The notes: a model not told the origin generated them from the letters alone. 62,451 nucleotides of DNA, filler included, from Spirochaetales bacterium (GCA_016928955.1; 3 parts of 3 records of this genome joined end to end with filler, not necessarily neighbours in it), one strand, 5' to 3'; counted from the whole stretch's first letter, positions 1-19,055 are shown. Program-made: numbers and translations.

Positions 1-49
1 ATGCGGACACGCCGACCGGCCGCGCGTGGCAGCCATCAGCGGACGTGAA

Positions 50-1729
50 TCAGCGCTCCAGTTTCCTGTACACGTAGCGATGCGGCCGGTCGGCGTCGCC
101 GCCGAGCTTCTCGCGGCGGTATTCGGCGTACTCTGACCAGTTGCCGTCGTACCACAGCACCTCGCCGTCCTCAAAGGCCAAGAGGTGCGTGCACACGCGG
201 TCCAGGAACCAGCGGTCGTGGCTGACCACCAGGGCGCAGCCGGCAAACTCGTCCAGGGCCTCTTCCAGGGCGCGGAGCGTGTTGACGTCAAGGTCGTTGG
301 TCGGCTCGTCCAGGAGGAGGACGTTGGCACCGTCCTTGAGCATCAGGGCCAGGTTCAGCCGGTTGCGCTCGCCTCCCGACAGGACGCCCACCTTCTTCTG
401 CTGGTCGGCGCCCGAGAAGTTGAACCACGAGCAGTAGGCCCGGCTGTTCACTTCCTTTGACCCGCCCAGCTTGATGATGTCCAGGCCGTCCGACAGCTGT
501 TCCCACACGGTCTTGTCGGGGTCCAGGCCGGCGCGCAGCTGGTCGGCGTAGGCCAGCTTGACCGTGTCGCCCAGGCGTACCTCGCCGGAGTCGGCGCTTT
601 CCAGGCCGGATATGAGCTTAAAGAGGGTGGTCTTGCCGGCGCCGTTCGGCCCGACAATGCCGACCACGGCTCCCGGCGGCACGGTAAAGTCCAGGTCCTT
701 GAACAGGAGCTTGTCGCCATACGCCTTGGTCAGCTTGGCGGAGCTTATGACCACGGAGCCAAGCCTGGGTCCGGGCGGTATGACCAGCTTGGTTTCCCGT
801 ACTTTCTCCCGCTCGCCGTCTGCCAGGAGTTTCTCGTACTGGGTTATACGCGCCTTGCTCTTGGCGTGCCTGCCCTTGGGGCTCATGCGCACCCACTCAA
901 GCTCGCGCTCCAGGGTCTTGGCGCGGGACGAGTCGGCCTTGTCCTCCATGGCTAGGCGGTCGCGCTTCTGCTCGAGCCAGCTGGAATAGTTGCCCTTCCA
1001 CGGGATGCCTTCCCCGCGGTCCAGTTCCAGGATCCAGCCGGCCACGTTGTCCAGGAAGTAGCGGTCGTGGGTAACGGCTATGACCGTGCCCTCGTACTGC
1101 TGGAGGTGGCGTTCGAGCCAGGCCACCGTCTCTGCGTCCAGGTGGTTGGTTGGCTCGTCCAGGAGGAGTATGTCCGGCTTGCGGAGGAGCAGGCGGCACA
1201 GGGCCACGCGCCTGCGCTCGCCCCCGGACAGCACGTCTACCACCTGGTCGGCCGGCGGGCAGCGCAGGGCTTCCATGGCCAGGTCCAGGCGGGCGTCAAG
1301 GTTCCAGCCGTCCGCCGCCTCTATGCGTTCCTGGAGCGACGCCTGTCGTTCGGCCAGCTTGTCAAAGTCCGCGTCCGGGTCCCCAAAGGCCTCGCTGACG
1401 TCCTCGAACTCCTTGAGGAGATCGACGACTTCCTGTACGCCTTCCGACACGATGTCACGCACGGTCTTGCCGGCCTCAAGGTGCGGTTCCTGCTCCAAAA
1501 AGCCTATGCTGTAGCCTGGGGAACAGCTGGTGTCGCCGGCAAACTCGGTGTCAACGCCGGCCAGGATGCGCAGCAGGCTGGATTTTCCCGAGCCGTTGAG
1601 CCCTATCACGCCTATCTTGGCGCCGTAATAGTAGCTGATGGATATGTCCTTGAGGACCTGCTTGACGCCGTGTTTCTTGGAAACGCGGTACATCGTATAG
1701 ATGATTTTCTTGTCGTCTACTGTGGCCAT
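50..1729 (-). CDS. ettA: Energy-dependent translational throttle protein EttA (ABC-F ATPase)
   Basis: Two ABC domains (GLNGSGKS and GPNGAGKT, LSGGE signatures, LLDEPTN), no TM segments, EttA-typical 'ELEWVRMSPKGRHAKSKAR' linker. Confidence 0.95.
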   Translation of the reverse strand: MATVDDKKIIYTMYRVSKKHGVKQVLKDISISYYYGAKIGVIGLNGSGKSSLLRILAGVDTEFAGDTSCSPGYSIGFLEQEPHLEAGKTVRDIVSEGVQEVVDLLKEFEDVSEAFGDPDADFDKLAERQASLQERIEAADGWNLDARLDLAMEALRCPPADQVVDVLSGGERRRVALCRLLLRKPDILLLDEPTNHLDAETVAWLERHLQQYEGTVIAVTHDRYFLDNVAGWILELDRGEGIPWKGNYSSWLEQKRDRLAMEDKADSSRAKTLERELEWVRMSPKGRHAKSKARITQYEKLLADGEREKVRETKLVIPPGPRLGSVVISSAKLTKAYGDKLLFKDLDFTVPPGAVVGIVGPNGAGKTTLFKLISGLESADSGEVRLGDTVKLAYADQLRAGLDPDKTVWEQLSDGLDIIKLGGSKEVNSRAYCSWFNFSGADQQKKVGVLSGGERNRLNLALMLKDGANVLLLDEPTNDLDVNTLRALEEALDEFAGCALVVSHDRWFLDRVCTHLLAFEDGEVLWYDGNWSEYAEYRREKLGGDADRPHRYVYRKLER

Positions 1730-1764
1730 GGCCGGAGTGTAGCAAATTCCCGAGCTTTAGGGAA

Positions 1765-3699
1765 ATGCCCCTTGCCAATCCGCCGCCGGCAGGCATACTT
1801 GATGCCATGGCTTCAGGCGTTCCGGGTGCGCGCTTTGCGCCGGCCCTCAAGCATTTTTTCTTCTCATCGCAGCGTGAGCCTGACGTCCGGGCCGGGCAGG
1901 CCTGGAGCAGCCTTGCGGGCCTGTACCTAGTTGCCCTTCTGGCGCTGTTCGCCGGGCCTTTCAATATCGTCCATGACCTGCGGGCCGGCCACGCGTTCCT
2001 GGCCCTCATGACCCTGACCTTCTGCCTGATGGCCCTGGCCGCGGTGATCGTGTTCTGGTCGACGCGCTCACTGCAGGCAGCCCAGGGCATGCTGGCGGGG
2101 GCCATAGCCGTTCTCCTGATAGCGGTCATCGTTGACGGTGGGGGTGTACGGGGTTTCGGTTTCATCTACTTCATAGCGGCCTTCCCGATCCTGCAGACGG
2201 CCCTGGGCATCAAGGGAGCAATAGCCCTGACCGGTCTCATGGTGGTGGGGTCCATAGCGCGCCTGGTCTTCGGGGTGGTGGAGCCGGGCTCCATCTATCA
2301 CGACGCGGACACGGTCAGGCGCTATATCGTCCTGGTGCTCACGGCTGCGGGCTTCGGGATACCGTCCATGCTGATACAGCACCGCCTCATGCAGCGCCTG
2401 GCCCGGGCGGCGTATGTGGACCCAACCACGGGCCTGGCCAACCGGACCCGCCTTATGGAAGCCGCCCGCGCCATGCTATCCGAGGCCCAGCGCTCGGACC
2501 GGAGCCTCGGCTTCATTGCCCTCAAGCTCAAGCGCTTCACGCAGTTCAATTCCCGGAACGGCATGGCCATGGGCGACGCTGTCCTGGGCGAGGTAGCCAG
2601 GCGCATCGTGTCAATGGCGCCGGAAGGCGCGCTGATTTGCCGGTACTCGGGCACGGTGTTCATGGTGGTGGGCGAGCTTGGCGCCCCCGGCGAGATCGAG
2701 CGACTGGCAGGCCGGCTGACCGCGGAGGCGTCGCGGCCCTTCGAGCAGGGCATCATGCGCGTGGCCCTGCAGATGGAAGCCGTGGTCACGCGCTATCCCG
2801 AGGACGGGCACAACCTGGAAAAGATCCTGTCCAACATCCTGTCCACCCTGGCCAAACCCCACCGCGGCCCCGAGTTGGTGCGCTATTTCAACGAGGCGTC
2901 CTACCGAGAGGACCAGCGTCGCTACGCCCTGGTGGACAGGCTCAGGCGCGCCCTGGAGAACAACGAGTTCAGGCTGGTGTACCATCCCAAATACTGGCTC
3001 AAGGACGAGCGTTGCGCCGGCGCAGAGGTCCTCTTGCGCTGGGAAACCGAGGATTTCGGAGCGGTGGCTCCGGCTGATTTCATACCGCTGGCCGAGGAAA
3101 CAGGGGTCATACGGGAAATCAGCCGCTGGGTGCTCATACAGGCCCACCGGGAAGTGGCCCTGATCAAGGAAAAATTCCCGGACCTGTTCAAGAGCCTGGT
3201 GTTCGCCATCAACTTGTCGCCTTTGGACATTGCCGACAAACGTATACTGGATTACCTGTCCGAGCTGGAGCGGGGCAGCGGCATAGACCGGGCGAATATA
3301 GAGTTCGAGATTACCGAAGGCACGCTCATGGAAGACGAGCCCGCCGCGGTCGAGGTGCTTGAGAGCTTGCGCGAGCACGGGTATCGCCTGGCCATAGACG
3401 ATTTCGGCACGGGCTATTCCAGCCTGTCCTACCTGCACAGGCTCAGGGTGAACACCATCAAGATAGACCGCAGCTTTGTCATGCAGATAGACGGCTCGGA
3501 CAACGAACTGCCCATCGTGCAGGCCATCATATCCATGGCCTCGTCTTTGGGCCTGGAACTGGTGGCCGAGGGCGTGGAAACAAAGGCCCAGTCGGATTAT
3601 CTGGCCGAACATAACTGCCAGTTTGCCCAGGGCTGGCTGTATTCCAAGCCCCTGCCGCTTGAGGACTACCTGCAGCTTCTGTCCTCGCGCTGCGGCTGA
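1765..3699 (+). CDS. Membrane-anchored GGDEF(degenerate)-EAL protein, probable c-di-GMP phosphodiesterase
   Basis: N-terminal hydrophobic helices; GGDEF-like domain (DPTTGLANR) with the active-site motif changed to RYSGTVF; EAL domain AEVLLRW, FEITE, IDDFGTGYSSL, KIDRSF, AEGVE, QGW. Start codon uncertain. Confidence 0.85.
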   Translation: MPLANPPPAGILDAMASGVPGARFAPALKHFFFSSQREPDVRAGQAWSSLAGLYLVALLALFAGPFNIVHDLRAGHAFLALMTLTFCLMALAAVIVFWSTRSLQAAQGMLAGAIAVLLIAVIVDGGGVRGFGFIYFIAAFPILQTALGIKGAIALTGLMVVGSIARLVFGVVEPGSIYHDADTVRRYIVLVLTAAGFGIPSMLIQHRLMQRLARAAYVDPTTGLANRTRLMEAARAMLSEAQRSDRSLGFIALKLKRFTQFNSRNGMAMGDAVLGEVARRIVSMAPEGALICRYSGTVFMVVGELGAPGEIERLAGRLTAEASRPFEQGIMRVALQMEAVVTRYPEDGHNLEKILSNILSTLAKPHRGPELVRYFNEASYREDQRRYALVDRLRRALENNEFRLVYHPKYWLKDERCAGAEVLLRWETEDFGAVAPADFIPLAEETGVIREISRWVLIQAHREVALIKEKFPDLFKSLVFAINLSPLDIADKRILDYLSELERGSGIDRANIEFEITEGTLMEDEPAAVEVLESLREHGYRLAIDDFGTGYSSLSYLHRLRVNTIKIDRSFVMQIDGSDNELPIVQAIISMASSLGLELVAEGVETKAQSDYLAEHNCQFAQGWLYSKPLPLEDYLQLLSSRCG

Positions 3700-3762
3700 G
3701 CGCTCCAGCGCTTTGCTGGCCGGCACGGTCGGCAGGAGGGCTCCGCGGGCGACGCTATCCGC

Positions 3763-5616
3763 TCAGTCGCCGTTCGCGTGAGGCAGCCGGAGAACCTCCC
3801 GTTCGTCGCCCCTGCGTTTCAACAGCCCCCGGTCCTCCATGCGGTTGAGGAGGGGCAGAATGTACTTCCTGGACAGGCCTGTTCTCTCCTTGGCCAGGCC
3901 CACGCCAAAGAGCTGGCCGGGCGACATGCCGGCCAGTATGGCGGCCGAAAGGCGCGCGTACTCGCGTGAAGCCAGGAAGATGCCCCCGTCCAGGGGCACG
4001 GCCAGCCCGAGTGAGCACAATTGTTTGAGGGCCGGCGCGTCGGTTTTTGGGGCGCTTGCGCCGGGCTCAAGACCCGCGGCCCCCGCCTTCCCCAGGCGTT
4101 TCAGAAGTTCGGCCAGGGCTGGGCTCAGGGTCGGCGCCTGCCCGGGAATCCGCCATGTCGCTTCTGAGCGCGTAAGTGCGCCCTGAGCCACCAGGGTAGA
4201 CAAGACAGCGTCGGCGGCCGTATCGCTTAGGGAACATGCAGACAGTGCCGCCACCCTGCCCAGGCCCTCCGGTTTTGACGCCAGGTGGGCAAGGGTGGCT
4301 GACAGGGCGTTCCAGGCGCTTTGGGTAAAGGCAACGCGTCCGGCCGCGAGCAGGTTCAGTCCGGCCACGGCCGTGGGGGGCAGGTCGGCCGGCAGGAAGG
4401 CGTGGCCGCGTCCGGTCAGCTCAAGGGCAAAGTCCCATGCCTGGGACGGGGCCAGAGCCGGAGCCGAGCTGGCCAGGGCTGCTACCAATGCTTCCGCCTG
4501 TCCGGCCGATGCCGACAGGGACTTTCTGCCTGCCTGGCCGGGCGGCGCCGTACCTATAACCAGTCCCCTCCCTATGAGGTCTGAGCCGCCCTTGCGTATC
4601 AGGATGAAGGGCTGGCCGGCAGGACAGGCCAGGGCCTGGGCGCAGGCCACCCGGACCAGCCGGCTGTCCTTCAGCGGCCACAGGACCACCTCGCCGTGCG
4701 CGCTGCCCAAGGCAAGCTCTGCCTCCACTCCCGGCCTGATCAGGGCCCGCCCCCTTTTGTCCAGGGGACACAGCGTGTCGGTGCCCGGAAGAGGCTGGAG
4801 GACGGCAAGCAGGTCCGTGCCGGATATGGTCCTGACGCCGTCTTTGACAAGAAGTTGGCCGCGCCTGTATCCGTCCTTCCTGGAAGACAGGGAAAGGGCC
4901 ACCCTGGCGGCGGGCCGTACCAGCTCCTGCCCGCGCCTGTGGGTCTGAATGGCCTTGATTTTTGCCTGATCGCCTTCCGGCAGGAGCACCAGGCGCTCGC
5001 CTTCTGCCAGGGGGCCGCCCCGGAGCGTCCCCGTGACCACGCTGCCGCCGCCCCTCGGAGTGAAGTGGCGGTCCACATAGCAATAGGCCGAATCCTCTAA
5101 CGGGGGCGGCAAGGATGCCAGCTCGCAGGCTATGGCCTGTTTCAGCTCTGAAAGACCGGTGCCCGCCTTGACGGACACGGATACGGCGTGCGGACGGTAT
5201 CCAAGGATTTTTGCGGCTCGTTCGGTCACGTCGGCAATCACGCTGTCCGTTCGCTCCCGCTGGGCAAGGTCTGTTTTGGAGACGACGATCAGCACCCGGG
5301 ACACGCCCATGCACGCCAGGATGGACGCGTGCACCTGGCTCTGGGGCATCCAGCCGTCGTCCGCCGCCACCACAAGGAGGGCCATATCCAGGCCCCAGGC
5401 TCCCGCGGCCATGTTGCGCAGGTAGCGTTCGTGTCCCGGCACGTCCACCACGCCCACGTCCTGGCCGTCGGAACCCTGGTACCAGGCAAAGCCCAGGTCG
5501 GTGGTCATGCCGCGCGCCTTTTCCTCGGGCAAGCGGTCAGGATCCATGTTGGTCAGGGCCAGGATCAGGGCGGTCTTGCCGTGGTCCACGTGACCAGCCG
5601 TGCCTATGACCCTCAT
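3763..5616 (-). CDS. selB: Selenocysteine-specific translation elongation factor SelB
   Basis: GTAGHVDHGKT, DRLPEEKARGMTTDLGF, DVPGHERY; C-terminal winged-helix SECIS-binding motif LSRKYILPLL; overlaps the selA stop. Confidence 0.95.
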   Translation of the reverse strand: MRVIGTAGHVDHGKTALILALTNMDPDRLPEEKARGMTTDLGFAWYQGSDGQDVGVVDVPGHERYLRNMAAGAWGLDMALLVVAADDGWMPQSQVHASILACMGVSRVLIVVSKTDLAQRERTDSVIADVTERAAKILGYRPHAVSVSVKAGTGLSELKQAIACELASLPPPLEDSAYCYVDRHFTPRGGGSVVTGTLRGGPLAEGERLVLLPEGDQAKIKAIQTHRRGQELVRPAARVALSLSSRKDGYRRGQLLVKDGVRTISGTDLLAVLQPLPGTDTLCPLDKRGRALIRPGVEAELALGSAHGEVVLWPLKDSRLVRVACAQALACPAGQPFILIRKGGSDLIGRGLVIGTAPPGQAGRKSLSASAGQAEALVAALASSAPALAPSQAWDFALELTGRGHAFLPADLPPTAVAGLNLLAAGRVAFTQSAWNALSATLAHLASKPEGLGRVAALSACSLSDTAADAVLSTLVAQGALTRSEATWRIPGQAPTLSPALAELLKRLGKAGAAGLEPGASAPKTDAPALKQLCSLGLAVPLDGGIFLASREYARLSAAILAGMSPGQLFGVGLAKERTGLSRKYILPLLNRMEDRGLLKRRGDEREVLRLPHANGD

Positions 5617-7007
5617 CCTTGCGCGTCCCCGATGGCGCCGGCCGCGCTCGGGAGGGAACAGCGGTCAAAGGCCCAGCGTATGGTCGACGCTATCTGGTCA
5701 GCGGGCTCGTCGGCCAGGGCGGCAAAATCCAGGCGTACGCGGTCGTCCTGTATCCTGCCCAGCAGGGGTAGGGGCGCTTGGCGCAGGGCGGCGGACAGGG
5801 TATCGGCCTTGTACCGGCCGCCCAGCTCCAGGGCCACGGACGGAAAGGTCTCGTCCGGGCCGCTCCCGCCACCCGACGCGGCTAAGGAGGGGACCAGGGT
5901 CGCTGAGTCGTCCGGAAGGAGGGCTAGTACGTCATGGGCGAGCGACTGTAGCTCCCCAAGCTCCCTGGACCGGGCGCGACCGGCAGGACCGGGCTCGCCG
6001 TTGAGCCGTGCCACCAGAACCCGTTCCAGGAGCGAATAGATGGTTTTGCCGGGCCGGAACGCCCTGTACAAGGGATGGTTCCTGAGCTTGGCCAAAAGGT
6101 CGGCCCTGCCGGCTATGATGCCAGCCTGGGGGCCGCCCAGGAGCTTGTCCGCTGAGAAGCTGACCAGGGCGCAACCGGCCTTGATGTAGCTAGACAGAGG
6201 GGTTTCGCCGGGTATGTTCTCGTCCAGGCAGCCCGAGCCCTGGTCCGCGTAGACGGGCAGGCCCGGGGGCAAAGCCTGTACCACCTCTGCCGGCCGCGGC
6301 CTGCTCGCAAAACCTCGGATGGCAAAATTGGAGCTGTGTACCAGGAGGGCGCAGGCGCTGTCCGGTCCCACGGCGCGGGCATAGTCCGACGCGTGGACGA
6401 TATTGGTCGTGCCCACTTCTTTGAATTTCGCTCCCGCCAGGGCCATGATGTCCGGCACCCTGAAGCCGCCGCCTATCTGTACCTGTTCGCCCCTGGCTAC
6501 TATCACATACCGCCCTGCTGCCAATGCGCTCAGGGTCAGGAGCACGGCCGCCGCGTTGTTGTTCACAACCAGGGCGTCTTCCGTGCCGGCCAGGGCGGCA
6601 GCAAGTTCGGGAACCAGGCCCCCGCGCGCTCCCCGTTGGCCGTTGTCCAGGTCCAGTTCCACCGGGCTGTAGCCGAGATTGGCCGCCCGGGCCCCGTCCC
6701 AGGCAAGCGCCGGCAGGGGAGACCTCCCCAGGTTGGTATGGAGTATGATTCCCGTGCCGTTAAGGACCGGCTTGAAGCGCTTGCGGTCCAGGCGTCCGAG
6801 GGCGTCCAGGGCCAGCATAATGCAACGCTCGGGTTCCGGCAGGTACGACTCGTCGCCCAAAGCCCGCTCGCGCTCCGCGGCCAGGACGCCGCTTACGGTT
6901 TTGGCTACCAGCGCCCGAGACAGCAGGGCGTGGTAGAAGGCTATCCGGGCGTCGGACAGGAGGCGCTCGGTGTGCGGCAGGCGCGACAGTCGTTCGTTCG
7001 TTTTCAT
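5613..7007 (-). CDS. selA: L-seryl-tRNA(Sec) selenium transferase SelA
   Basis: NGTGIILHTNLGRSPL, VNNNAAAV, IGGGFRVPD, EVGTTN, PLP-lysine motif FSADKLLGGPQ. Start reassigned to ATG at 7007 because the ORF-track start (7109) runs through the tRNA gene. Confidence 0.93.
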   Translation of the reverse strand: MKTNERLSRLPHTERLLSDARIAFYHALLSRALVAKTVSGVLAAERERALGDESYLPEPERCIMLALDALGRLDRKRFKPVLNGTGIILHTNLGRSPLPALAWDGARAANLGYSPVELDLDNGQRGARGGLVPELAAALAGTEDALVVNNNAAAVLLTLSALAAGRYVIVARGEQVQIGGGFRVPDIMALAGAKFKEVGTTNIVHASDYARAVGPDSACALLVHSSNFAIRGFASRPRPAEVVQALPPGLPVYADQGSGCLDENIPGETPLSSYIKAGCALVSFSADKLLGGPQAGIIAGRADLLAKLRNHPLYRAFRPGKTIYSLLERVLVARLNGEPGPAGRARSRELGELQSLAHDVLALLPDDSATLVPSLAASGGGSGPDETFPSVALELGGRYKADTLSAALRQAPLPLLGRIQDDRVRLDFAALADEPADQIASTIRWAFDRCSLPSAAGAIGDAQG

Positions 7008-7013
7008 AGGTAG

Positions 7014-7102
7014 CGGAAGAGGCAGGAATCGAACCTGCCACCGCGCGGCGCGCGGCCAGCGGTTTTGAAGACCGCGGGAGCCACCAGACCCCATCTGCTT
7101 CC
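7014..7102 (-). tRNA. selC: tRNA-Sec (anticodon UCA)
   Basis: GGAAGCAG... 6-bp D stem with 4-nt loop (GGGGTC-TGGT-GGCTCC), anticodon arm GCGGT-CTTCAAA-ACCGC, long variable arm, GCAGG-TTCGATT-CCTGC T arm, discriminator G; CCA not encoded. Confidence 0.96.
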
Positions 7103-7133
7103 CTGGCACACCGTGGCGCCATGAGCGTGCTCA

Positions 7134-7162
7134 ATACTACGGGCGGGCCGCGGGCTGGTCAA
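7134..7162 (-). promoter_or_regulatory. sigma70-like promoter for selC-selA-selB
   Basis: TTGACC-N17-TAGTAT on the minus strand upstream of selC. Confidence 0.6.
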
Positions 7163-7177
7163 GCTGGACTGCCGAGC

Positions 7178-7206
7178 TTGCCAAGCGCGCGGCGCGCTGG
7201 TACTAT
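7178..7206 (+). promoter_or_regulatory. sigma70-like promoter for selD
   Basis: TTGCCA-N17-TACTAT upstream of ATG 7242. Confidence 0.6.
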
Positions 7207-7241
7207 CCATCGGCGGCGCACCGCGCCGGAAACGAGGGCCC

Positions 7242-8306
7242 ATGGACATCCGGAAGACCATACGTCTGACCAGTATGTGCTCGGCCGCTGGGTGAGCGGC
7301 AAAAATGGGCCCTGAAGCCCTGGCGCAGGTTCTGCGCCCTTTGGCCGCCTTGGTGCCGCCCGAGCGGGCCCCCGATTTGCTGGCGGGTTTTGCCGAGGGT
7401 GACGACGCGGCCGTATACCGGCTGAACGACGAGCAATGCCTCATTTTCACGGCTGATTTTTTCACGCCCGTGGTGGACGACCCCTACGACTTTGGGGCCA
7501 TAGCGGCGGCCAATGCCCTGTCGGACGTGTATGCCACGGGCGGCGTGCCCATACTTGCCCTGAACCTGGCGGCTTTCCCGCCGGAACTGGACCAGGACGT
7601 GGTGAGGCACATCATACGTGGCGGAGCGGAAACGGCGTCGGCCGCCGGGTGCGCGGTTGCCGGCGGGCACACCATAACGGACGCTGAGCCTAAATTCGGC
7701 ATGGCCGTGGTCGGTTTGGCCCATCCCGACCAGGTGCTCCTCAAGTCGGGGGCCGTGCCGGGCGATGCCCTGATCCTGACCAAGGTGCTTGGAACGGGGG
7801 CCGTCACCACGGCCGCAAAGAACGGGCGATGCACGCCGGAACAGCTGGCCGCCGCCGTGGATTCGATGAAGCTGCTCAACCGCGACGCTTTGATGGTCCT
7901 GCGGAGGCACGGCGTGAGGGCGTGCACGGACATAACGGGTTTCTCCTTCGCCGGCCATGCCCTGGAACTGGCCGGAAAGGGCAGTGTCGGTCTGCGGGTA
8001 AACGCTGACAACCTCCGGTACCTGGACGGGGCACGGGAACTGACGGCCGCCGGGCAGGTACCCGGAGGAGCCATACGCAACCGTCGCTGTTACGAGCCCA
8101 TGGTCGGCTTTGACGGGAACTTTGACGAAGCATGGAGGGCGCTCTTCTTTATGCCGGAAACCTCAGGTGGGCTCCTGGCGGCCATACCGGCCGAGCGTGC
8201 ATCTGCCTGCGTGGACGAGCTCAGGCAAGCCGGCATCGTGGCCGACCGGGTCGGAGACGTGGTTGCGCCAGACGGCGGGCCGCCCCTGCGCGTGAGCTCC
8301 GGCTGA
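7242..8306 (+). CDS. selD: Selenide, water dikinase SelD, selenoprotein form (Sec at UGA 7293-7295, codon 18)
   Basis: ATG 7242 reads MDIRKTIRLTSMCSAAG-U-AAKMGPEAL in frame with ORF 7305..8306; the UGA occupies the catalytic Cys/Sec position of the G-C/U-x-x-K motif; DDAAVY, DFFTP, ANALSDVYA, GGHT, TDITGF, ETSGGLL. Confidence 0.95.
7306..7338 (+). promoter_or_regulatory. Candidate SECIS element of selD
   Basis: Hairpins 3' of the UGA: GGGC-CCTGAA-GCCC and GGCGCAG-GTT-CTGCGCC (7322-7338); which one is functional cannot be decided from sequence. Confidence 0.55.
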
Positions 8307-8326
8307 GCCAGACGCCAGCCGACTTT

Positions 8327-8359
8327 AAAAAAAGGCTGCCCTGTGCGGGCAGCCTTTTT
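8327..8359. terminator. Bidirectional intrinsic terminator between selD and the rhodanese gene
   Basis: A7-GGCTGCCC-TGTGC-GGGCAGCC-T5 between convergent genes. Confidence 0.85.
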
Positions 8360-8412
8360 GTTGCAGGAAACGTTTCCGCCGACTTTTAGCCGGCGGAGCC
8401 GTCCGCTTGCGC

Positions 8413-9285
8413 TTACTTCCAGGTGAGCTTGACGAACTTGACGGCAGGGTCCTTGGATATATCCTGGGCGGAACCGTCATAGGAACGGACCTTGGTCCAG
8501 CCCAGCTGCTGGGTCAGGATCCACCACCAGGTGGTGGCCAAAACGCCTGAATCGCAGTGGATGATCGTTTCCTTGCTGGCGCTCAGCTTGAGGGCCTTGA
8601 CCATGGCTTCAAGCTCGGCCTTGGGCTTGACCATGCCGTCGGCGGTAATCCAGGCGGCGGGCAGGCTCGTGGCGCCGGGGATGTGGCCGAACTGGGCCAC
8701 AAAAGCCGCTTTGGCAAGGCCAAAGTAGGTGTCGTAGGCGCGGACGTCCAGGATCTGGGCTTTCTTGAGGTTTTTGAGCACGTATGCCTTGTCGGCAAAG
8801 TAGGCGGCGTTGAAGCTCACCTGGAACTCTGTCTCGTCCTTGCTCTCAAAACCGGTGGCCACGCCCTTGCCGGCCTTGGTCCAGGCGGCGTACCCGCCGT
8901 CCAGCACGGCCACGTTGGGCACGCCGGCGTATACCAGGGTCCAGGCCACGCGGGTCGCCCAGGTGAAACGGGCACCGTCGGTCTCAACCACCACGACGAT
9001 GGAGTTGGCGTCAATGCCGGACTCGGCCAGGATGTCCGACAGGTCCTCGGCGTCCGGAACCTCGTTGGACAGGTCGTTCTTGGCCATGTACAGGCCCATG
9101 GCGTTGACGGCGCCGGGGACATGGCCGGCCTTGTAGTCGTCCATCTTGCGGACGTCCAGGACGACCAGGCGCTCGTTGCCAAGGTTGGCCTCGAGCCAGT
9201 CGGCTGAAACGATGGCGTCAACGTCGCGAGCAAAGGCGGGCGCGACGAGGGCGGCCAGTACCAGGAGAAGGGCTAGCTTCTTCAT
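8413..9285 (-). CDS. Exported tandem-domain rhodanese/sulfurtransferase
   Basis: AAGGAG RBS then signal peptide MKKLALLLVLAALVAPAFA; LDVR...Y..GHVPGA, VLDGGY..W, GHIPGA, active-site loop HCDSGVLA, YDGS. Confidence 0.9.
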   Translation of the reverse strand: MKKLALLLVLAALVAPAFARDVDAIVSADWLEANLGNERLVVLDVRKMDDYKAGHVPGAVNAMGLYMAKNDLSNEVPDAEDLSDILAESGIDANSIVVVVETDGARFTWATRVAWTLVYAGVPNVAVLDGGYAAWTKAGKGVATGFESKDETEFQVSFNAAYFADKAYVLKNLKKAQILDVRAYDTYFGLAKAAFVAQFGHIPGATSLPAAWITADGMVKPKAELEAMVKALKLSASKETIIHCDSGVLATTWWWILTQQLGWTKVRSYDGSAQDISKDPAVKFVKLTWK

Positions 9286-9338
9286 GATGGGGTGCTCCTT
9301 CAAAGGCAAGGCGGTTTCTCGGCATGGCCGGTCCCGCC

Positions 9339-9370
9339 AAAAAAGGTCCCCGCCCGGCCAGGGGGCGGGG
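9339..9370 (-). terminator. Intrinsic terminator-like hairpin between the cytochrome and rhodanese genes
   Basis: Minus strand CCCCGCCC-N7-GGGCGGGG-ACC-TTTTTT just after the cytochrome stop. Confidence 0.65.
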
Positions 9371-9378
9371 GCTATGAA

Positions 9379-10602
9379 CTAGGGAACAAGCTCCAGGTTT
9401 TTCAATGAGAGCCCCTCGGGCAGGTCGCTGGTCTGCAGGTAATGGGCGCCTTCCACGTGGCAGGCGTTGCAGTCGCGGGTGCGGTCTGTGCGCTTGGCCA
9501 GGTTGTGGGGCACGGCGTCCCAGTAGTTCGGCAGGCTGTCGTAGTTGGACATGGTCACCCCGGCGTGCTTGAACGTGTCGCGCACGGTGGGGATCAACCT
9601 GAGCGTGGTCAGCTCCTTGGGATTGCGTGGACTCTTGCCCAGTACCAGGCCAGGCTTGGCCGTGGCGCCGGAGCCCTCATGGCAGTTTGAGCACTGGCGG
9701 TATTCAGACGTGACATGGCAGGCGGAACACGACACGTGCTCTAGATGCGTTGCGTGGGTCTCCTGCGTGGAATCCTTGCCCATGGTGGCTATGTCGTGGC
9801 AGTCGGTGCATGACGGCCTGTTGGCCACGTCCTTGCGTCCGCTTGCTGCTCCGGACGTGCCGTGGAACTGGTCTCCGCTGTGACAGTCCGTGCAAGTCAT
9901 GCCCTTGCGGTAGTGCACGTCGGGCACTCCCGTGTAGTCGCCCGTGAATTCCGGCCACACGCGGCCTCCGTGGCACAGGGCGCAGGTTTTAGACTCGTCG
10001 GCTTTGACAAAGCGGTGCCCGTCCAGGAGGCCCGAGTTGATTCCGGATACCACGGGGCTCTGCACGTGGCAGTCGCCGCAGGACGCGTGGCATGAGCGGC
10101 AGGATTGCTCGAACACCTTCTGGTCAAAGAGCTTCTTTTCAGCGGCGTTGAAACGCGGCGCAACGCCGTTTTTCATGCCGGCCGCCGTGTAGTGCAGGGC
10201 CAGGGTATAGGTTTTGGAAATGGCCTCATGGCATTGTCCGCAGCTGGTTTCCGGCTGGTCCGAAGGGCGCTTGATCATGCCCTTGTGCGCAGCCGCCTTG
10301 TCCGCCGCGTTCTGATTGCCCTGGTGGCAACTTATGCAATCGAGGTAGAAATGGGGGTCTTCCGCCAGCGCGTCAGGGCTGACGACAAAGCCCATGTAAT
10401 AATCCGCCCGAACCGGGGGAGGAGCTCCCGCTCACCCCTCGCCTTCGGCCGACGCACCCGAGGGCGGCGTGACGAGCTTCTGCATCGTGGCCGGCGTGCT
10501 GTGGCAGTCAACGCAGCTACCGCCCGTTGCGTGGGCGGCTAGGGCGGCGGCGCCAAAGAACGCGACCATGAGCATGGCCCGCTTGCTTGCGGCCATATTC
10601 AT
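9379..10602 (-). CDS. Exported multiheme cytochrome c selenoprotein (11 CxxCH, Sec at UGA 10432-10434, codon 57; 407 aa)
   Basis: AAGGAGG RBS, ATG 10602, signal peptide, CVDCH, ...SAEGEG-U-AGAPPPVRADYY continuing in frame into ORF 9379..10395, which carries 10 more CxxCH; SECIS-like hairpin; adjacent sel genes. Confidence 0.88.
10403..10420 (-). promoter_or_regulatory. Candidate SECIS element of the multiheme cytochrome
   Basis: UCCCCCG-GUU-CGGG(C)GGA hairpin whose G-starting loop begins 18 nt after the UGA. Confidence 0.7.
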
Positions 10603-10715
10603 AGGAACCTCCTTGCCGGGATGGATAAGGCCAACGGCCCTCGCGGATCCAGTAAAGAACCCGCTACTCAGCTAATTTCAAAACTCGTCCGACTTTTGAA
10701 AGAGCCTCGTATCAG

Positions 10716-10744
10716 ACTATAACCAATGTTGGGCACGGTGTAAA
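10716..10744 (-). promoter_or_regulatory. sigma70-like promoter for the cytochrome gene
   Basis: TTTACA-N17-TATAGT on the minus strand, with an AT-rich tract upstream. Confidence 0.6.
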
Positions 10745-10797
10745 TAGATAAAAATAAATATATATATGATTAACGACATCAAGAATGCCCGTCTCGA

Positions 10798-10826
10798 TTG
10801 ACAAAAACGGTTTGTGCCCCTAGTCT
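10798..10826 (+). promoter_or_regulatory. sigma70-like promoter for resB-ccsA
   Basis: TTGACA-N17-TAGTCT, divergent from the cytochrome promoter. Confidence 0.6.
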
Positions 10827-10879
10827 TGGCTGGTTTACGTCCTCAGGCCTGAGGTACGAATTCCCTTCGGGAGTAGCCC

Positions 10880-11857
10880 GTGAACAAACTGCTGGATAAG
10901 CTGTCCTCGATAAAGCTGGCCATCGGACTGATCGTGTATCTGGCCGTGACAGGTATTTTGGCGACCCTGGTGCCGCAGGGTCTTGCCTTTGAAGAATACC
11001 AGGCCCTGTACCCCCGCCTGCTTGCCGACCTGGTATTCCAGACCGGGTTCTCGCATTTTTTCAATTCAATCCTGTTCATACTTCCGGCCTTGCTGTTTTT
11101 TGCCAATCTGTCGGTGTGCACCGTCAAGCGTTTTGTCCGGGAAATCCGCAGGAAGGGTCCCAAGCGCTTTGGTCCGGACATACTCCACCTCGGGCTGATG
11201 CTTCTGGTGCTGGGCTCAATCTGGTCGTATTCCGGACATCAGCAGGGCGCGGTTACCTTGAGCCCGGGCGAGGGCGTGGAGCTGCCCGACGGATCGACCC
11301 TGGTGCTCAGGGACTTCCGCTTTGAGCAGTACGACGATGGGCGCCCTAAGGATTGGATATCCACGGTGGACCTGAGCAAAAACGGCCAAATCATCAAGGA
11401 AGGCTATCAGCTCAAGGTCAACGCGCCGTTGCGGCACGCAGGCTTGACCCTGTACCAGGCATCCTACTCCCAGCGCTCGTCGCTCATCCTCAGGGACGCT
11501 GAAGGCCACGAATTCCGACTAGGGCAGGGCGAGAGCCTGGAACTCGGCGGCCTATCCGTGTTTTTCATGGCGCCCGAGGGCACGGACCCGGCGGGAGACG
11601 GCGTACTTGCGGCAGACCAGCAGCCGGATAACGCGCGGGCGGTGGTACAGCTGTCCGACGCCGACGGACAACGAGTGGAAAGGCTGGCGCCGGGCTCTGT
11701 GCTCGGCGACGTCACCGTGATCGGCTTCAGGAACGAGCTGGCGACGGGCATAGAGGCTGTGGACGACCCGGGCTATCCCCTGGTGCTCGTGGCCCTGATT
11801 CTCATAGCCTTTGGCACCGCGCTCACCTTCATACAGAAACTCAAGGAGCTTGCATGA
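10880..11857 (+). CDS. resB: Cytochrome c biogenesis protein ResB/CcsB-like (system II)
   Basis: LSSIKLAI...GILATLVPQG, NLSVCT, conserved His (ILHLG), large extracytoplasmic loop with VNAPL...YQASY, DPGYPLV TM; ATGA overlap with ccsA. Confidence 0.85.
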   Translation: MNKLLDKLSSIKLAIGLIVYLAVTGILATLVPQGLAFEEYQALYPRLLADLVFQTGFSHFFNSILFILPALLFFANLSVCTVKRFVREIRRKGPKRFGPDILHLGLMLLVLGSIWSYSGHQQGAVTLSPGEGVELPDGSTLVLRDFRFEQYDDGRPKDWISTVDLSKNGQIIKEGYQLKVNAPLRHAGLTLYQASYSQRSSLILRDAEGHEFRLGQGESLELGGLSVFFMAPEGTDPAGDGVLAADQQPDNARAVVQLSDADGQRVERLAPGSVLGDVTVIGFRNELATGIEAVDDPGYPLVLVALILIAFGTALTFIQKLKELA

Positions 11858-12654
11858 CCCTGTCCCAGATACTGGCCACCGCGGCCTTCTCCCTCCTTGG
11901 CCTTTCGGCCCTGGTCCTTATCGTGCGCCTGTTCTCCCGCTCGGGCAAACCCGAATGGCTGTCGGCGGCTGCCCAGGCCCTCGCGGCGGTGCTGTTGGCC
12001 GCCGAGCTGGTCATGCGGAGCTTTCAGGTGGGCTTTGTGGCCCTCACCAGCACGTACGAGTCGCTCCTGTTCTACGCCGCGGTGATAGCCGCCCTCTTGG
12101 TGTGGTACCGTTTCCAGAAAAAACTGCGGTACAGCGCCGGGCTGGCCTTTGGAGCCGTGATGGTAGCCATCATCATGATGGCCGTGGCCAGTTCACCGCT
12201 GATAGCCAAAGAGGCCCTGCCGCCCATACCGGCCCTGCGTTCGGGGTGGCTCGTGTTGCATGTGAGCTTCTCGTTCATCGGGGAGGCGTTCTTTGTGGTC
12301 AGCTTCGTCGCGTCCATACTGTTCCTGGCGACCAAGAACGACGAGCGTCGCCTGGATCTGGACCGCGTCACCTACACGTCCGTGGCCATAGGCTATGTAT
12401 TCTTCACGGCAGGCGCCCTGGCCTTTGGAGCCATCTGGGCAGAGCAGGCATGGGGACGCTGGTGGAGCTGGGATCCAAAGGAAACCTGGGCCCTGGTCAC
12501 CTGGCTGGTGTATACGGCGTACCTGCACGTGCGCCTGGTGATGAAGCGCAAGGACTCGTGGCCGTCGATCATATCGGTTGCCGGGTTCCTGTGCACGGTG
12601 TTCACGTTCTTTGGAGTGAACTACCTGTTGCCCGGGCTCCACAGCTACGGTTGA
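11854..12654 (+). CDS. ccsA: Cytochrome c biogenesis protein CcsA/ResC (system II heme lyase)
   Basis: WWD domain GAIWAEQAWGRWWSWDPKETWAL, PALRSGWLVLHV, YLH, GVNYLLPGLHSY. Confidence 0.95.
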   Translation: MTLSQILATAAFSLLGLSALVLIVRLFSRSGKPEWLSAAAQALAAVLLAAELVMRSFQVGFVALTSTYESLLFYAAVIAALLVWYRFQKKLRYSAGLAFGAVMVAIIMMAVASSPLIAKEALPPIPALRSGWLVLHVSFSFIGEAFFVVSFVASILFLATKNDERRLDLDRVTYTSVAIGYVFFTAGALAFGAIWAEQAWGRWWSWDPKETWALVTWLVYTAYLHVRLVMKRKDSWPSIISVAGFLCTVFTFFGVNYLLPGLHSYG

Positions 12655-12662
12655 TAAACGCC

Positions 12663-14606
12663 CTACCCGGAAGCCAGGCTCCCGTCAGGGGGCCGGCCCT
12701 TGCCCGGTGCATCCGCCGCCGATGCATCGGGGCGGGGCGGTATGTACACGGTCACCGATGACCCGCCGCCGGCCCGCCCGCCCACGGTGAGCGACGCGCC
12801 GAGTTGCTGGGCCAGGGCCCGTACGATGGTGTAGCCCATGCCCCCTGACTGCTCGGGTTCAAAGCCGTCCGGAAAACCGCGCCCGTCGTCCTCCACCGAT
12901 ACCGCGAGCCATCCGTCATCCTGACGGCGCGCCCGCAGGTAGACGGTGCCGTGGCCGCGGTCCAAGAAGGCATATTTCAGGGAATTGGTGACCAGCTCGT
13001 TGGCGATGAGGCCTATGGGCACGGCGTCCTCAAGGGCAAGCTGGCTATCGTCCGCGTCCACCTTCCATTCGATCTCTGTGCATCCGCCCAGATACACGTC
13101 GCACAGGTCCGTAAAAAGATCCCGCAGGTAGTCGCCGGCGCTTATGGACGACAGGTCCACCGAGCGGTACAGCTGCTCGTGCACGTGGGCCATGGCGCGG
13201 ACGCGGTCCTGGCTCTCCTGAAACAAGCCTCGGTCGTATTCGTTGTGGAAGCGGTCCGACTGTATGGACAGGAGGCTGGACACGATCTGAAGGTTGTTTT
13301 TGACGCGGTGATGGATTTCCTTGAGCAGGGCCTCCTTTTCCCGCAGCGAATCCGACAATTTCCGAAGGGTCAGTTCCCTGCTGGTTACATCACGGGACAG
13401 GCAGAGGGCGCGCTTGTCGTCCAAACGGGCTATGCGAGCATCAAAGGTCAGGCCGCCGTCCGGGCCCGGAAGGGTGTACTGGAGCAGCTGAACCTCATTG
13501 GTCTTGATGGCCTTATCTATAGCTACACAGGCGCGCTCGTGCAGGGCGCTGTCGCCCAGGACCTCGTACACGCTTTTGCCCAGGAAGTCGTCAACCGGTG
13601 CCGCGACCACGGCCGAGCTCTGGTAATGGGCCTCCAGGTAGCGGCCCTCCCGGTCAAACACAAACAGGTAGTCGGGCAGGGCGTTGACCATGGCTTCCAG
13701 GCGGGCGCGTGCGCCGGCCAGCTCGGCCAGTCTGGCCGCCAATTCGGCCGTGCGCACGGCTACCGTGCGCTTGAGAACGGCCGCGGCCAGGGCAAGGATA
13801 ACGATAAAGAGGGCTAATACAGCCGAGCCCGCCGCCAGCCACGTTACCGTTTTTGGGTCCAGACTCCGGAACAGCGTTGACCCGAACCAGCGCCTGTCTA
13901 TGGCGTCCGTCACGGACGGCGGCAGGGCATTGAAGCCGCGCTCGACCAGTTCCAGCACGGCCGCGTCGCCCTTGGCCACGGCGCGGTGGAAACTGCCGGT
14001 GTACAGGTTCATGGCCTTGCGGTAATCGCGTGCCGCCCCCGCTTTCTGGAGCAGGTAGAGGGCGGGAGGTTCGTCCAGGCAGAAAATGCGCTCGGTACCG
14101 TCGAGGGCGGCGTCTACGAGCGCGTCGTAGCTCGGGTAGAGGCTGATGTCCTCAACACCGGCGGCGCGGAGCACGTCCACGCATGCGTCGCCCCGCTTGG
14201 CAGCCACGCGGAAACCTCTGAGGTCTTCAGGTTCGGCCAGGCCCGATATGTCGCTGTGGAAAAAGACAGGCACGGGCAATTCGGCGTAGGGCGGGGTGAA
14301 ATCCAGCCAGGCGTCCCGCTCGTCGTTCCGGAAAATGGTGTCTATGACGTCCGCCTGGCCGGCACGCATGGCCTCCAGGGCGGCCGACCATTCCATGCCC
14401 CGGAGCTCGACCCTGACGCCCGTGGCATCCTGCCAGGCCTTCCACAGGTCCGGAAGTATGCCCTTGAGCCTGCCGTCGTCGTCCTGAAACGAGTAGGGCG
14501 GGTAGTCGTTGTCGCATACCACGACTATCGAGTGTATGGACGGCGTGGCCTGGGCAAACGCCAGCTTGGTTGCCAGGCACAAGAGCAGGGCGGGGGCGAA
14601 CTTCAC
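12663..14606 (-). CDS. Sensor histidine kinase (family-3 solute-binding domain, TM, PAS, HisKA_2/HATPase)
   Basis: Signal peptide, DYPPYSF SBP domain, LLKEIHHRVKNNLQ, NELVTNSLKYAF, DDGRG, GMG. Confidence 0.9.
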   Translation of the reverse strand: MKFAPALLLCLATKLAFAQATPSIHSIVVVCDNDYPPYSFQDDDGRLKGILPDLWKAWQDATGVRVELRGMEWSAALEAMRAGQADVIDTIFRNDERDAWLDFTPPYAELPVPVFFHSDISGLAEPEDLRGFRVAAKRGDACVDVLRAAGVEDISLYPSYDALVDAALDGTERIFCLDEPPALYLLQKAGAARDYRKAMNLYTGSFHRAVAKGDAAVLELVERGFNALPPSVTDAIDRRWFGSTLFRSLDPKTVTWLAAGSAVLALFIVILALAAAVLKRTVAVRTAELAARLAELAGARARLEAMVNALPDYLFVFDREGRYLEAHYQSSAVVAAPVDDFLGKSVYEVLGDSALHERACVAIDKAIKTNEVQLLQYTLPGPDGGLTFDARIARLDDKRALCLSRDVTSRELTLRKLSDSLREKEALLKEIHHRVKNNLQIVSSLLSIQSDRFHNEYDRGLFQESQDRVRAMAHVHEQLYRSVDLSSISAGDYLRDLFTDLCDVYLGGCTEIEWKVDADDSQLALEDAVPIGLIANELVTNSLKYAFLDRGHGTVYLRARRQDDGWLAVSVEDDGRGFPDGFEPEQSGGMGYTIVRALAQQLGASLTVGGRAGGGSSVTVYIPPRPDASAADAPGKGRPPDGSLASG

Positions 14607-14735
14607 CGGTACTCCTTGGTACGGGATTGGGTGCCGGAGTGGCCGGCGCGCTCATGCCTACGGACTACAGCATAGGCCCTACGCGCCGACGTTTCCAGGG
14701 CGGTCTGGCCCCTATCGTTCTTCCTCCGCGGACGT

Positions 14736-15812
14736 TCAGCGCAGGTGATATCCGCCGGCCGCCGTTTCCGCGGCCAGGTAGGCTGTATAGGCAGCCTGGT
14801 CATAGGGGTAATCCCAGGCGCCCTGCCTGTGCAGGAGCCGCCCGCCAAAACCGCTTTTGAACGCGTACAGGCCGTACAAAGGATGCTCGGGATCCGGCCT
14901 CGGAGCCACGCCGAAGAGGTCGTAGCTCAAGCAGTTCCGCCCGAGCGCCGCGAGCATGGCTTCCCACTGGAGGGCATAGGGCGCCATGGCTCCCCGCTCG
15001 GTGCCGCTGGACGCCCCGTACAGGTAGGTTGCCCTGTCCGCCGACACGGACAGGAACATGGCGGCCAGCGCCTTGCCGTTCAGCTCTGCTATCAGAAGCT
15101 GTATGCCGCCAGAGCCGGCATCGGGCCCGAACAGGGCTCTGAAATGTTTCTCGGCGTGGGGGACAAAGTTGTTGCGGGCAGCCGTTTCCCCATAAAGGCG
15201 TTGCCAGAGCGGGAGATCCTCCGGTCCGCCCGTCCGCACCCGGACACCCTTGCGGCGGGACAGCCTGATGTTGTAACGCGTTTTAGGCTTCATGCGGCGG
15301 AGCAGGGCGTCCTCGCCGCCCCTGAGGTCCACGATCATGGTGTCGGGGGGGAGTATGTCGCTCGGGGCCTTGCGTACTCCCACGGACGGAACGCCCCAGT
15401 TCATGCGGAGTTCCCGGAGGCGTGGCTCGGGAGGGCCGAGCCAGCGGCCATCTCCGTCGTAGCGCCCGTCGTCGTCTGCGTAGGGGGATGTCCACGGTAG
15501 ATCCCAGCGCACAAAGGCGCAGTCGGCCCCCAGGAGGGGCCTGAGCGTCTCGGACAGGGCGTGGAGGAATTCGCCGCGCCTGTCCGCATGGGGCAGGGTC
15601 TCCGGGCCAAAGGGCGCGTAGGCCAGGGTCCTGGCTCCTGAGCGCCTTGTCAGGATGAGCACGTCGCCGGCGGCCTGGCCGTCGACGCTGATGTCAAAGC
15701 TGAGGGGCCGCCAGCCAAGGCGCCGCTTGACCGAGCTCCAGAAGCTGGTCTGGTGTACCAGGGGTGTGTCCGTGAGGCGGGCGGACGGTTTTGCCGTCAC
15801 GCTGACCTTCAT
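14736..15812 (-). CDS. FemAB/FemX-family peptidoglycan bridge aminoacyltransferase
   Basis: HQTSFW..VK...GW, MKPKTRYNIRL..RKGV, YLYGAS, YDLFG, GLYAFKSGFGG; start placed after the GGAGGAG RBS. Confidence 0.9.
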   Translation of the reverse strand: MKVSVTAKPSARLTDTPLVHQTSFWSSVKRRLGWRPLSFDISVDGQAAGDVLILTRRSGARTLAYAPFGPETLPHADRRGEFLHALSETLRPLLGADCAFVRWDLPWTSPYADDDGRYDGDGRWLGPPEPRLRELRMNWGVPSVGVRKAPSDILPPDTMIVDLRGGEDALLRRMKPKTRYNIRLSRRKGVRVRTGGPEDLPLWQRLYGETAARNNFVPHAEKHFRALFGPDAGSGGIQLLIAELNGKALAAMFLSVSADRATYLYGASSGTERGAMAPYALQWEAMLAALGRNCLSYDLFGVAPRPDPEHPLYGLYAFKSGFGGRLLHRQGAWDYPYDQAAYTAYLAAETAAGGYHLR

Positions 15813-15836
15813 ACGCTCCTCCACGGCCGCGGATAG

Positions 15837-16319
15837 TCACCGTCCGCAGCACTGTTTGTATTTTTTCCCCGAGCCGCAGGGGCAGGGGTCGTTGCGTCCC
15901 ACCTTGGGCGCGGTGCGGGTGACCGTTGCGGTTTTCACCTCGCCTGATTCGTACAGCCAGCCGCCGTCCTGGCGGACAAAGCGAGCCGTTTCATGGTGCT
16001 CCTCGGCCAGGCCGTTCTGCTCGTAGGTGGCCACGAACTCCACCAGCCCGTCCTGGTCGTTCGGGCCGCCCCGCTCCACCCTGAGTATCCGCAAACCCTT
16101 CCAGGTGGATTGCTCGCTCCAGCGCCTGGTGGCTTCCTCGTCGATGTTGTCGTCATGGACGCAGCTGGCCATCACATGGTCGATCTTGTGCAGGGCGTAG
16201 GCGCTATAGCGGCTGCGCATCAGGGCCTCCGCGCTGGGGGCCGGCTTGTCGCCGGAAATGATGGGCCCGCAACAGGCGGTATAGGCGCGGCCGGAGCCGC
16301 AGGGGCAAAGATCGCTCAT
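15837..16319 (-). CDS. YchJ-family protein with SEC-C motifs
   Basis: [29 protein letters not shown]...[19 protein letters not shown]. Confidence 0.92.
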
Positions 16320-16495
16320 GAACATCCTCCGTGAACACGTTGTAACCCGGATAGGCTCCCGGGGGCAAGAAGGACCCGGCGCGGTCGTGACACGGCCTGC
16401 CTTGCCGCGCTACACTGGCTGCCGTCGAATGGACCCCGTAACCGGGCCATTAGCACATATTTTGCGCGGGATAGCGTCGCGGACAGGAACCATAC

Positions 16496-18895: not shown

Positions 18896-18937
18896 TACAG
18901 GCTTGCGCGATCCTGCGAACCAAGGTACCATAAAGCC

Positions 18938-19003
18938 ATGATGCTGGTTCATTCCACGTTGGCGTACTATTACCGCGACTGTCCGGGCTGCCATCGGGGA
19001 TAG
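18938..19003 (+). other. Putative leader peptide MMLVHSTLAYYYRDCPGCHRG of a transcription attenuator
   Basis: Short ORF with three consecutive Tyr codons, just downstream of TTGCGC-N17-TACCAT (18903-18931) and upstream of a terminator. Confidence 0.4.
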
Positions 19004-19023
19004 ACCGTCTTGTCACGCACGAC

Positions 19024-19055
19024 GCGGCTCCCGATCAACGGGAGCCGTTTTTTTT
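19024..19055 (+). terminator. Intrinsic terminator
   Basis: CGGCTCCCG-ATCAA-CGGGAGCCG followed by T8. Confidence 0.9.

Follow-up and report, generated by a model that had tools for sequence, protein, structure and literature searches.

A probable selenocysteine-containing 11-heme cytochrome encoded with its maturation genes and a rhodanese in a spirochaete genome is a candidate sulfur reductase

Sud of Wolinella is a rhodanese that acts as a periplasmic sulfur carrier and works with the molybdenum enzyme Psr. ExtH (NF040901) is likewise an exported rhodanese found beside a sulfur-reducing terminal enzyme. Among enzymes, MccSep/ExtKL of Geobacter sulfurreducens (GSU2937-2936; PDB 9wt8-9wtc; model NF040886) is an exported multiheme c-type cytochrome with one selenocysteine (Sec), split at the UGA in databases; cleavage of S-S bonds by the Sec beside a heme has been proposed for it, and Cys-type homologues exist (PMC13510729; here and below, papers are cited from excerpts). 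Octaheme tetrathionate reductase (OTR; SO4144; PDB 1sp3; TIGR04315) is a multiheme cytochrome whose heme II is catalytic and carries Lys56 as ligand (PMC3769277; PMC4484225). The excerpts of a 2026 review covering 119 prokaryotic selenoprotein families list three cytochrome-type entries, ExtKL, GSU2204 and an OTR family, the last with a Sec form annotated in GenBank (PMC13188914). Here, we describe a locus of a Spirochaetales bacterium (GCA_016928955.1; genome G000), contained in a stretch of 62,451 nucleotides including filler (the window), in which the gene for an exported multiheme cytochrome with an in-frame UGA stands among genes for Sec insertion, heme attachment and an exported rhodanese. 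Comparison genomes are labelled G, fetched loci L and contigs C; family counts refer to 42 genomes of one family and are given without a statistic.

The cytochrome gene (9379-10602, minus strand) encodes 407 residues with 11 CxxCH motifs and a single in-frame TGA at codon 57 (10434-10432, minus strand), confirming what the preliminary description had proposed for it. Its signal peptide, like that of the rhodanese, was assessed by eye; both proteins have signal-peptide-like N-termini without a lipobox. All 22 Cys residues sit in the 11 motifs and none is free. The TGA is very likely a Sec codon. It was retained in every family genome with the gene (22 of 22), in all 21 loci of an overlapping set with one genome per species (a set that includes the near-identical pair L015 and L016), and in all three genomes from other spirochaete families. 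A Cys occupies the linker between hemes 1 and 2 in 14 of 46 stop-free homologues selected for coverage of the N-terminus. Among 18 spirochaete genes, a residue with four-fold or higher degeneracy is invariant at 77 positions, and a single codon is used at only 6 of these; five of the six fall within codons 61-66, the hairpin past the UGA. This hairpin (10403-10420, minus strand), which resembles a selenocysteine insertion sequence (SECIS), has a G/U loop and begins 12 nt past the UGA. The consensus fold revealed no compensatory pair and the folding energy of the stretch did not exceed that of shuffles; in two distant homologues, a hairpin with a GUU loop but of unrelated sequence lies equally far past the UGA. 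The kept UGA, the Cys counterpart and the SECIS-like hairpin are accompanied by selA, selB, selC and selD in the same genome, as in bacterial selenoproteins generally. A TGA arising from sequencing error or a pseudogene was ruled out by the conservation, and a code in which TGA specifies Trp was ruled out by genes throughout G000 that end in TGA. One of the 21 loci, L005 (110-1330; genome G028), has an additional TAA at codon 41 of its cytochrome gene, either a pseudogene or an assembly error. The family drew 796 database matches, and among the 120 listed, 114 cover at most 84% of the query; databases split family members at the UGA.

We then asked what else the two maturation systems could serve in G000, which has a completeness rating of 99.48%. 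A genome-wide CxxCH scan returned 73 stop-to-stop segments, of which 15 passed a filter requiring a positive coding score or at least two motifs; two of these are the window's cytochrome, and the others, judged by eye, are cytoplasmic zinc- or iron-sulfur-like proteins or shadow frames. The scan therefore yielded no second c-type cytochrome and no other CxxCH client for ResB/CcsA. Two Sec read-through scans, heuristic and non-exhaustive, one giving 116 candidates and one covering 1555 TGAs beside coding DNA, left selD and the cytochrome as the only plausible selenoproteins. Directed searches of G000 did not find a molybdopterin oxidoreductase, formate dehydrogenase (FDH), MvhD, NrfD or GrdB (G027 being the positive control for the latter), and SelU/MnmH gave nothing over cut-off and only a 24-bit fragment. 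The cytochrome thus appears to be the only c-type cytochrome of G000 and, besides SelD, its sole Sec client, which bears out the earlier proposal that both machineries exist for one product. The absence of a detected molybdopterin enzyme also sets G000 apart from the Sud/Psr arrangement.

Within the family, the distribution of selA follows that of the cytochrome: selA was present in all 22 cytochrome-positive genomes and in 5 of the 20 cytochrome-negative ones (G017, with Sec-FDH as client; G027, with GrdB; and G022, G039 and G040). FDH alpha-subunit matches occurred in 28 of 42 genomes, with a TGA in G017 only and in none of the cytochrome-positive genomes. G017 carries a separate sel cluster (L059:3315-15433, C22) with a Sec-formate dehydrogenase and a YeeE/YedE-type sulfur transporter. 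There too the Sec machinery is clustered with its main client; the cluster in the window differs in serving an exported cytochrome and in also taking in the heme lyase.

The partner most tightly tied to the cytochrome is the rhodanese (8413-9285, minus strand). It has two Pfam Rhodanese domains with the catalytic Cys in the second (codon 8556-8554, minus strand; invariant in 25 of 25 aligned sequences), the arrangement of the tandem TST/MST type, and the active-site loop HCDSGVLA is present as first reported. Among solved structures, thiosulfate sulfurtransferases come closest to it (E 7e-25). Rhodanese and cytochrome occur in the identical 22 of 42 family genomes and adjoin each other in 21 of 21 loci, the rhodanese being of the same type in 19 and single-domain in 2. 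Rhodaneses of other types have been recruited at L019 and L020 and in G206, G266 and G382, and two of 22 homologues scanned are cytochrome-rhodanese fusions. A model of the complex, built without the Sec arm, scored 0.37 versus 0.00 for the best control, with at least 75% of contacts agreeing between runs and a partner pLDDT of at least 91; at 0.60 or below, 18 of 157 solved complexes reached the mark, as did both of the two passing mismatches (of 215), so that the model offers weak support for a complex.

To place the cytochrome among known proteins, we compared its sequence and an AlphaFold2 model (pLDDT 91) with described families. No NCBIfam model scored over cut-off, those of ExtKL, GSU2204 and the OTR family included, and a single-sequence search of solved structures gave 0 matches. 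The best structural match was OTR 1sp3 (Z 9.8, rmsd 4.2, 257 residues aligned, 20% identity; next match Z 4.7), and a profile comparison matched OTR at E 5e-9 over several collinear stretches, pairing hemes 3, 4, 6-9 and 11 with OTR motifs and heme 4 with the CTSCH motif. The predicted fold is hence of the OTR type with matching heme order, at a moderate Z, and heme 4 would be the equivalent of OTR heme II, the catalytic heme. In contrast to OTR, the window's cytochrome has three additional hemes, an obligate rhodanese and, beyond the portion that aligns, an N-terminal Sec arm; it lacks the Cys that OTR has in the stretch ahead of heme 4 and has no conserved equivalent of Lys56, there being no Lys conserved across both homologue groups or between His137 and heme 4. 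TIGR04315 gave 14.8 bits against a cut-off of 375. Nine non-motif His residues are conserved for 11 hemes, and therefore at least two hemes are open or otherwise ligated; Sec57 and Tyr301 are candidate ligands of hemes without His. Longer homologues carry additional hemes, and a weak search for longer fusions returned two proteins with heme domains alone.

The distance from MccSep is greater. That enzyme has 5 hemes rather than 11, bears its Sec325 in a C-terminal Ig-like domain rather than in an N-terminal loop, and needs a heme-ligating Cys239, whereas the window's cytochrome has no free Cys (PMC13510729). NF040886 gave no match at E 0.1, and the profile match to 9wt8 reached only E 0.004 over about 80 residues of heme motifs; MccSep was not among the structures listed in the fold searches, an absence that does not exclude a shared fold. 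By these sequence comparisons the cytochrome is not MccSep/ExtKL and has no homology to it beyond heme motifs. Likewise, the rhodanese scored 66.8 bits with the ExtH model against a cut-off of 200 and is a tandem TST/MST protein unlike ExtH, which reduces the link to the Geobacter ext cluster drawn in the preliminary description to an analogy. The cytochrome would therefore be MccSep-like in working mode and OTR-like in build, as a member of neither family. We did not find the family described in the open-access literature, subscription journals and supplementary tables being outside the scope of that search.

Heme and electrons would have to reach this protein from elsewhere. Searches of G000 for HemB, HemC and ferrochelatase gave no match, and HemB was found in only 1 of the 42 family genomes (controls positive in 11 of 14); the heme would therefore have to come from outside the cell. 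Attachment would follow system II, with resB and ccsA in the block and CcdA (DsbD_TM) and a redoxin side by side on C52. The block thus falls short of the complete kit claimed for it, since heme synthesis genes were not found and CcdA and the thioredoxin lie on another contig. No quinol dehydrogenase or membrane anchor is visible in the window, as had been noted, and candidate donors turned up elsewhere in the genome: on C47 an NDH-2-like protein with a HepT-like gene next to it, ApbE, a MenA-like gene on C36 that is under cut-off for the best models (37.6 vs 102 for TIGR00751), and a NapH-like membrane iron-sulfur gene on C31, also under cut-off, followed by a 252-aa protein without a Pfam match (the two together at C31:8083-9685; L057:5084-6686). 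G000 further has three RnfD/NqrB-type loci on C9, C1 and C25 (L048, L049 and L050, respectively full Rnf-like, divergent second and Nqr-like) and four FeFe-hydrogenase matches. The host seems to be a sugar-fermenting type of spirochaete without apparent heme synthesis of its own; its placement among spirochaetes is supported by the nearest named relatives.

Taken together, we give about an even chance to the cytochrome being a periplasmic polysulfide or sulfane-sulfur reductase that serves as the electron sink of a fermenter. The rhodanese would bind sulfane sulfur in the form of a Cys persulfide and hand it to the cytochrome, where Sec57, the sole chalcogen residue that does not bind heme, would attack that sulfur from its flexible loop at, or beside, a heme lacking a distal His ligand, most likely heme 4, with Sec57 possibly an axial ligand. 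The heme chain would then supply two electrons, releasing HS- and freeing the selenol. Electrons could pass from NADH through NDH-2 to menaquinone, made from a scavenged precursor, and on to the NapH-like membrane protein, the weakest step; the heme itself would be scavenged. This sulfur-reductase reading draws on the lack of any other detected c-type cytochrome, molybdopterin enzyme, NrfD, MvhD or GrdB in G000, the strict company of rhodanese and cytochrome, the selA gene in all 22 genomes, the Sec/Cys pairing, the nine non-motif His for 11 hemes, OTR as best match, the weakly supported model of the complex, the DsrE2-, TusA-, HdrA- and QmoC-like genes at L016 and the candidate electron-supply genes of G000, of which ApbE, NDH-2 and HepT-like genes also adjoin the G382 block. 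MccSep, which reduces polysulfide with a Sec beside a heme, offers a precedent (PMC13510729).

Several observations weigh on the other side. The family genomes are kin and not independent of one another. The linker Cys is missing in 32 of the 46 stop-free homologues, where Trp, Ala, His or Tyr stands in its place or the loop is shorter, and therefore the chalcogen is not universal; some of the Trp residues are perhaps TGA codons that gene callers translated as Trp. Confidence in the model is lowest at the Sec loop (pLDDT about 64), the Z of 9.8 is barely above the 7-8 that is the usual best Z of unmatched models, and a Foldseek search of the PDB returned nothing at E 0.001, with Z at most 4.7 in its follow-up, where OTR was not among the structures compared. 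No heme importer was identified in G000, where two FecCD-type systems were found, one B12-like and one with a weak IsdE-like binding protein. The NapH-like gene occurs in 39 of 42 family genomes and is not specific; as a dedicated partner it was rejected, there being no co-occurrence signal. In four RNA runs of one study, matched as contigs, all 30 bins of window positions 1-20000 were evenly covered at low depth, and such evenness over 20 kb may mean that DNA was the source.

Other activities account for part of these data. An enzyme of thiosulfate or tetrathionate, OTR- or TsdA-like and running in either direction, with thiosulfate cleavage by the rhodanese or a Se-thiosulfonate formed on Sec57 at heme 4, is in our view unlikely. 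The OTR-like fold and the thiosulfate sulfurtransferases closest to the rhodanese speak for it, and TsdA and SoxAX use His/Cys-ligated hemes in this way (PMC13510729), yet the TIGR04315 score lies far below cut-off, no Lys is conserved where OTR heme II has Lys56 (PMC3769277), and neither compound is turned over by MccSep, the only Sec-heme enzyme that has been assayed (PMC13510729). Somewhat less likely again would be periplasmic reduction or detoxification of selenium or metalloid species such as selenite, polyselenide or thioarsenate. MccSep also reduces selenite (PMC13510729), and acr3-, arsC- and arsM-type genes lie near the cytochrome in several relatives, with hgcAB in L010; those neighbours, however, belong to kin of one family and are not on the window's contig, an Acr3 query found no match in G000, and eleven scavenged hemes are a high cost for detoxification.

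The direction of electron flow is not given by genomics, and the rhodanese could equally take a product away, so that oxidation of sulfide to protein-bound sulfane sulfur, in detoxification or disproportionation, with electrons leaving outward or to quinone, would also fit; homologues occur in Desulfobacteraceae. We consider it improbable: G000 yielded no sink in the form of a molybdopterin terminal reductase, NrfD or another cytochrome c, oxidases not having been searched for. That the chalcogen is missing in many stop-free homologues and that longer homologues carry additional hemes would suit a carrier or storage cytochrome in which Sec57 has a structural role or one of tuning a heme, with the rhodanese tied in by co-regulation, but the retention of selABCD for a non-essential residue is then hard to account for, no other cytochrome c was found as exchange partner, and the rhodanese linkage is strict, making this role quite improbable. 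OTR also reduces nitrite and hydroxylamine (PMC4484225), which weighs against the sulfur-reductase reading, and G015 has an NrfA-family gene beside resB/ccsA in place of this cytochrome; a nitrite or hydroxylamine reductase would nonetheless account for neither the Sec nor the obligate rhodanese, and we hold it to be highly improbable.

Where the preliminary description looked to conserved synteny, the pairing of rhodanese and cytochrome stood in all loci, and the full tight block was seen in a minority of relatives. Among the 22 genomes, coordinates place a tight block with the sel genes in G000, G003, G006 and probably G005; it was additionally found at L012 and L021 and partly at L013 and L014. 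In G038, selA lies 17 kb off, and in most other genomes it is on a separate contig. Either resB or ccsA adjoins the cytochrome in 13 of 21 loci. Genes like ccsA are broader, present in 35 of 42 genomes and often as a bare resB/ccsA pair, which suggests that the client was lost or that clients differ. In G022 (L043:16445-17697, C18), resB stands with a ccsA that is split in two frames, selA/selC lie 13 kb off and the cytochrome was not found in the genome; this looks like decay following client loss.

In a phylum-wide sample of 401 genomes, only 4 matched the cytochrome, G000 among them. One of these, G382 of another family (C18, L068:2-13225), has a rhodanese lipoprotein, selC, selA, selB, a Sec cytochrome, resB and ccsA consecutively, in a region that starts with ApbE, NDH-2-like and HepT-like genes; selD was not in the 20 kb fetched around this block, and G382 gave neither a HemB nor an FDH match. 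G206 and G266 have HemB, and no sel genes were present in the 20 kb fetched. The G382 cytochrome is 35% identical to that of the window and falls in a different clade, while the window's own clade takes in sequences from Desulfobacteraceae, Syntrophales and Geobacteraceae. A single clade for the 8 spirochaete sequences was rejected (p-AU 1e-46) on a quick tree, as both trees were, with the group named after the first tree had been seen. Separate acquisition and old paralogy would both fit the two spirochaete-family clades, and we claim no donor.

Individual relatives have further genes beside the pair. At L003 (12293-13639), a putative metalloenzyme maturase of the radical SAM/SPASM type (TIGR04311, over cut-off) lies right past the rhodanese, without a tblastn match in G000. 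At L010 (2128-5097), hgcB and hgcA (both over cut-off), an arsC-like gene and acr3 come straight after the cytochrome-rhodanese pair, making its host a candidate mercury-methylating spirochaete. Upstream of the pair at L016 (848-7996) are DsrE2-like, TusA-like, two HdrA-like and QmoC-like genes, all under cut-off.

The window joins three contigs (C37, C40 and C48) by N runs at 24217-24316 and 51721-51820, and the genuine neighbourhood is C37 only (1-24216). Between 3763 and 12654 lie selB, selA, tRNA-Sec, selD, the rhodanese, the cytochrome, resB and ccsA with no further gene in between, in agreement with the 8.9-kb block first described. Gene direction divides the block into four units in place of a single operon: selC-selA-selB (minus), selD (plus), cytochrome-rhodanese (minus) and resB-ccsA (plus). 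The Sec elongation factor selB (3763-5616, minus strand) has GTP_EFTU and SelB-wing_3 domains, that is, both the GTPase and the SelB winged helix, yet remains under the cut-off of its best match (TIGR00475, 216.8 bits vs 242.25). The others passed their NCBIfam cut-offs: Sec synthase selA (5613-7007, minus strand; TIGR00474, 420.9 bits vs 267.9), selenophosphate synthetase selD (7242-8306, plus strand; TIGR00476, 347.9 bits) and the system II heme lyase ccsA/resC (CcsB; 11854-12654, plus strand; TIGR03144, 195 bits vs 187.6), which follows resB/ccs1 (10880-11857, plus strand; Pfam ResB, 102.9 bits), also of system II cytochrome c maturation. The tRNA-Sec gene selC (7013-7103, minus strand; anticodon UCA) is the sole copy in the genome (ARAGORN; Rfam RF01852, 67.2 bits). 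SelD is itself a selenoprotein, with an in-frame TGA at codon 18 (7293-7295, plus strand); all 7 selD N-termini that could be matched in fetched loci have a TGA there too.

Consensus scans alone placed divergent promoter-like sites in the selC/selD gap (7134-7206; 7162-7134 minus and 7178-7206 plus, 9 of 12 matches each), a promoter-like site for cytochrome and rhodanese (10716-10744, minus strand; 10 of 12 matches) and a terminator-like hairpin between these two genes (9348-9370, minus strand). A hairpin flanked by A/T runs in the gap of the convergent selD and rhodanese genes (approximately 8329-8359) is a probable two-way terminator. Recent transfer of the block was rejected, its GC being that of the surroundings. 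An 85-bp repeat at contig ends, common to many other contigs, is probably a mobile-element end, and two open reading frames of C37 have no convincing family match (21148-21876, minus strand; 21997-22710, plus strand).

Two maturation systems kept for one product imply that both the Sec residue and the hemes are under selection. The cytochrome points to Sec-heme enzymes of a second class, with no sequence relationship to MccSep. A bolder extension is possible but rather doubtful, namely that Sec57 is an axial ligand of a heme c in an OTR-fold enzyme, a natural His/Sec heme c in which one residue does what Cys and Sec do in MccSep, and that heme-auxotrophic fermentative spirochaetes have, at least two times, assembled a portable module of Sec code, heme lyase, enzyme and sulfur carrier that would enable sulfur reduction when neighbours provide heme, quinone precursor and selenium. 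Sulfur reduction has been reported for Spirochaeta smaragdinae (PMC3035371) and is therefore not in itself new for a spirochaete. What the cytochrome predicts is that spirochaetes of the sludge and groundwater type reduce sulfur in a manner dependent on heme and selenium, and standard marker searches for molybdopterin Psr/Phs and NrfD would miss such sulfur reducers.

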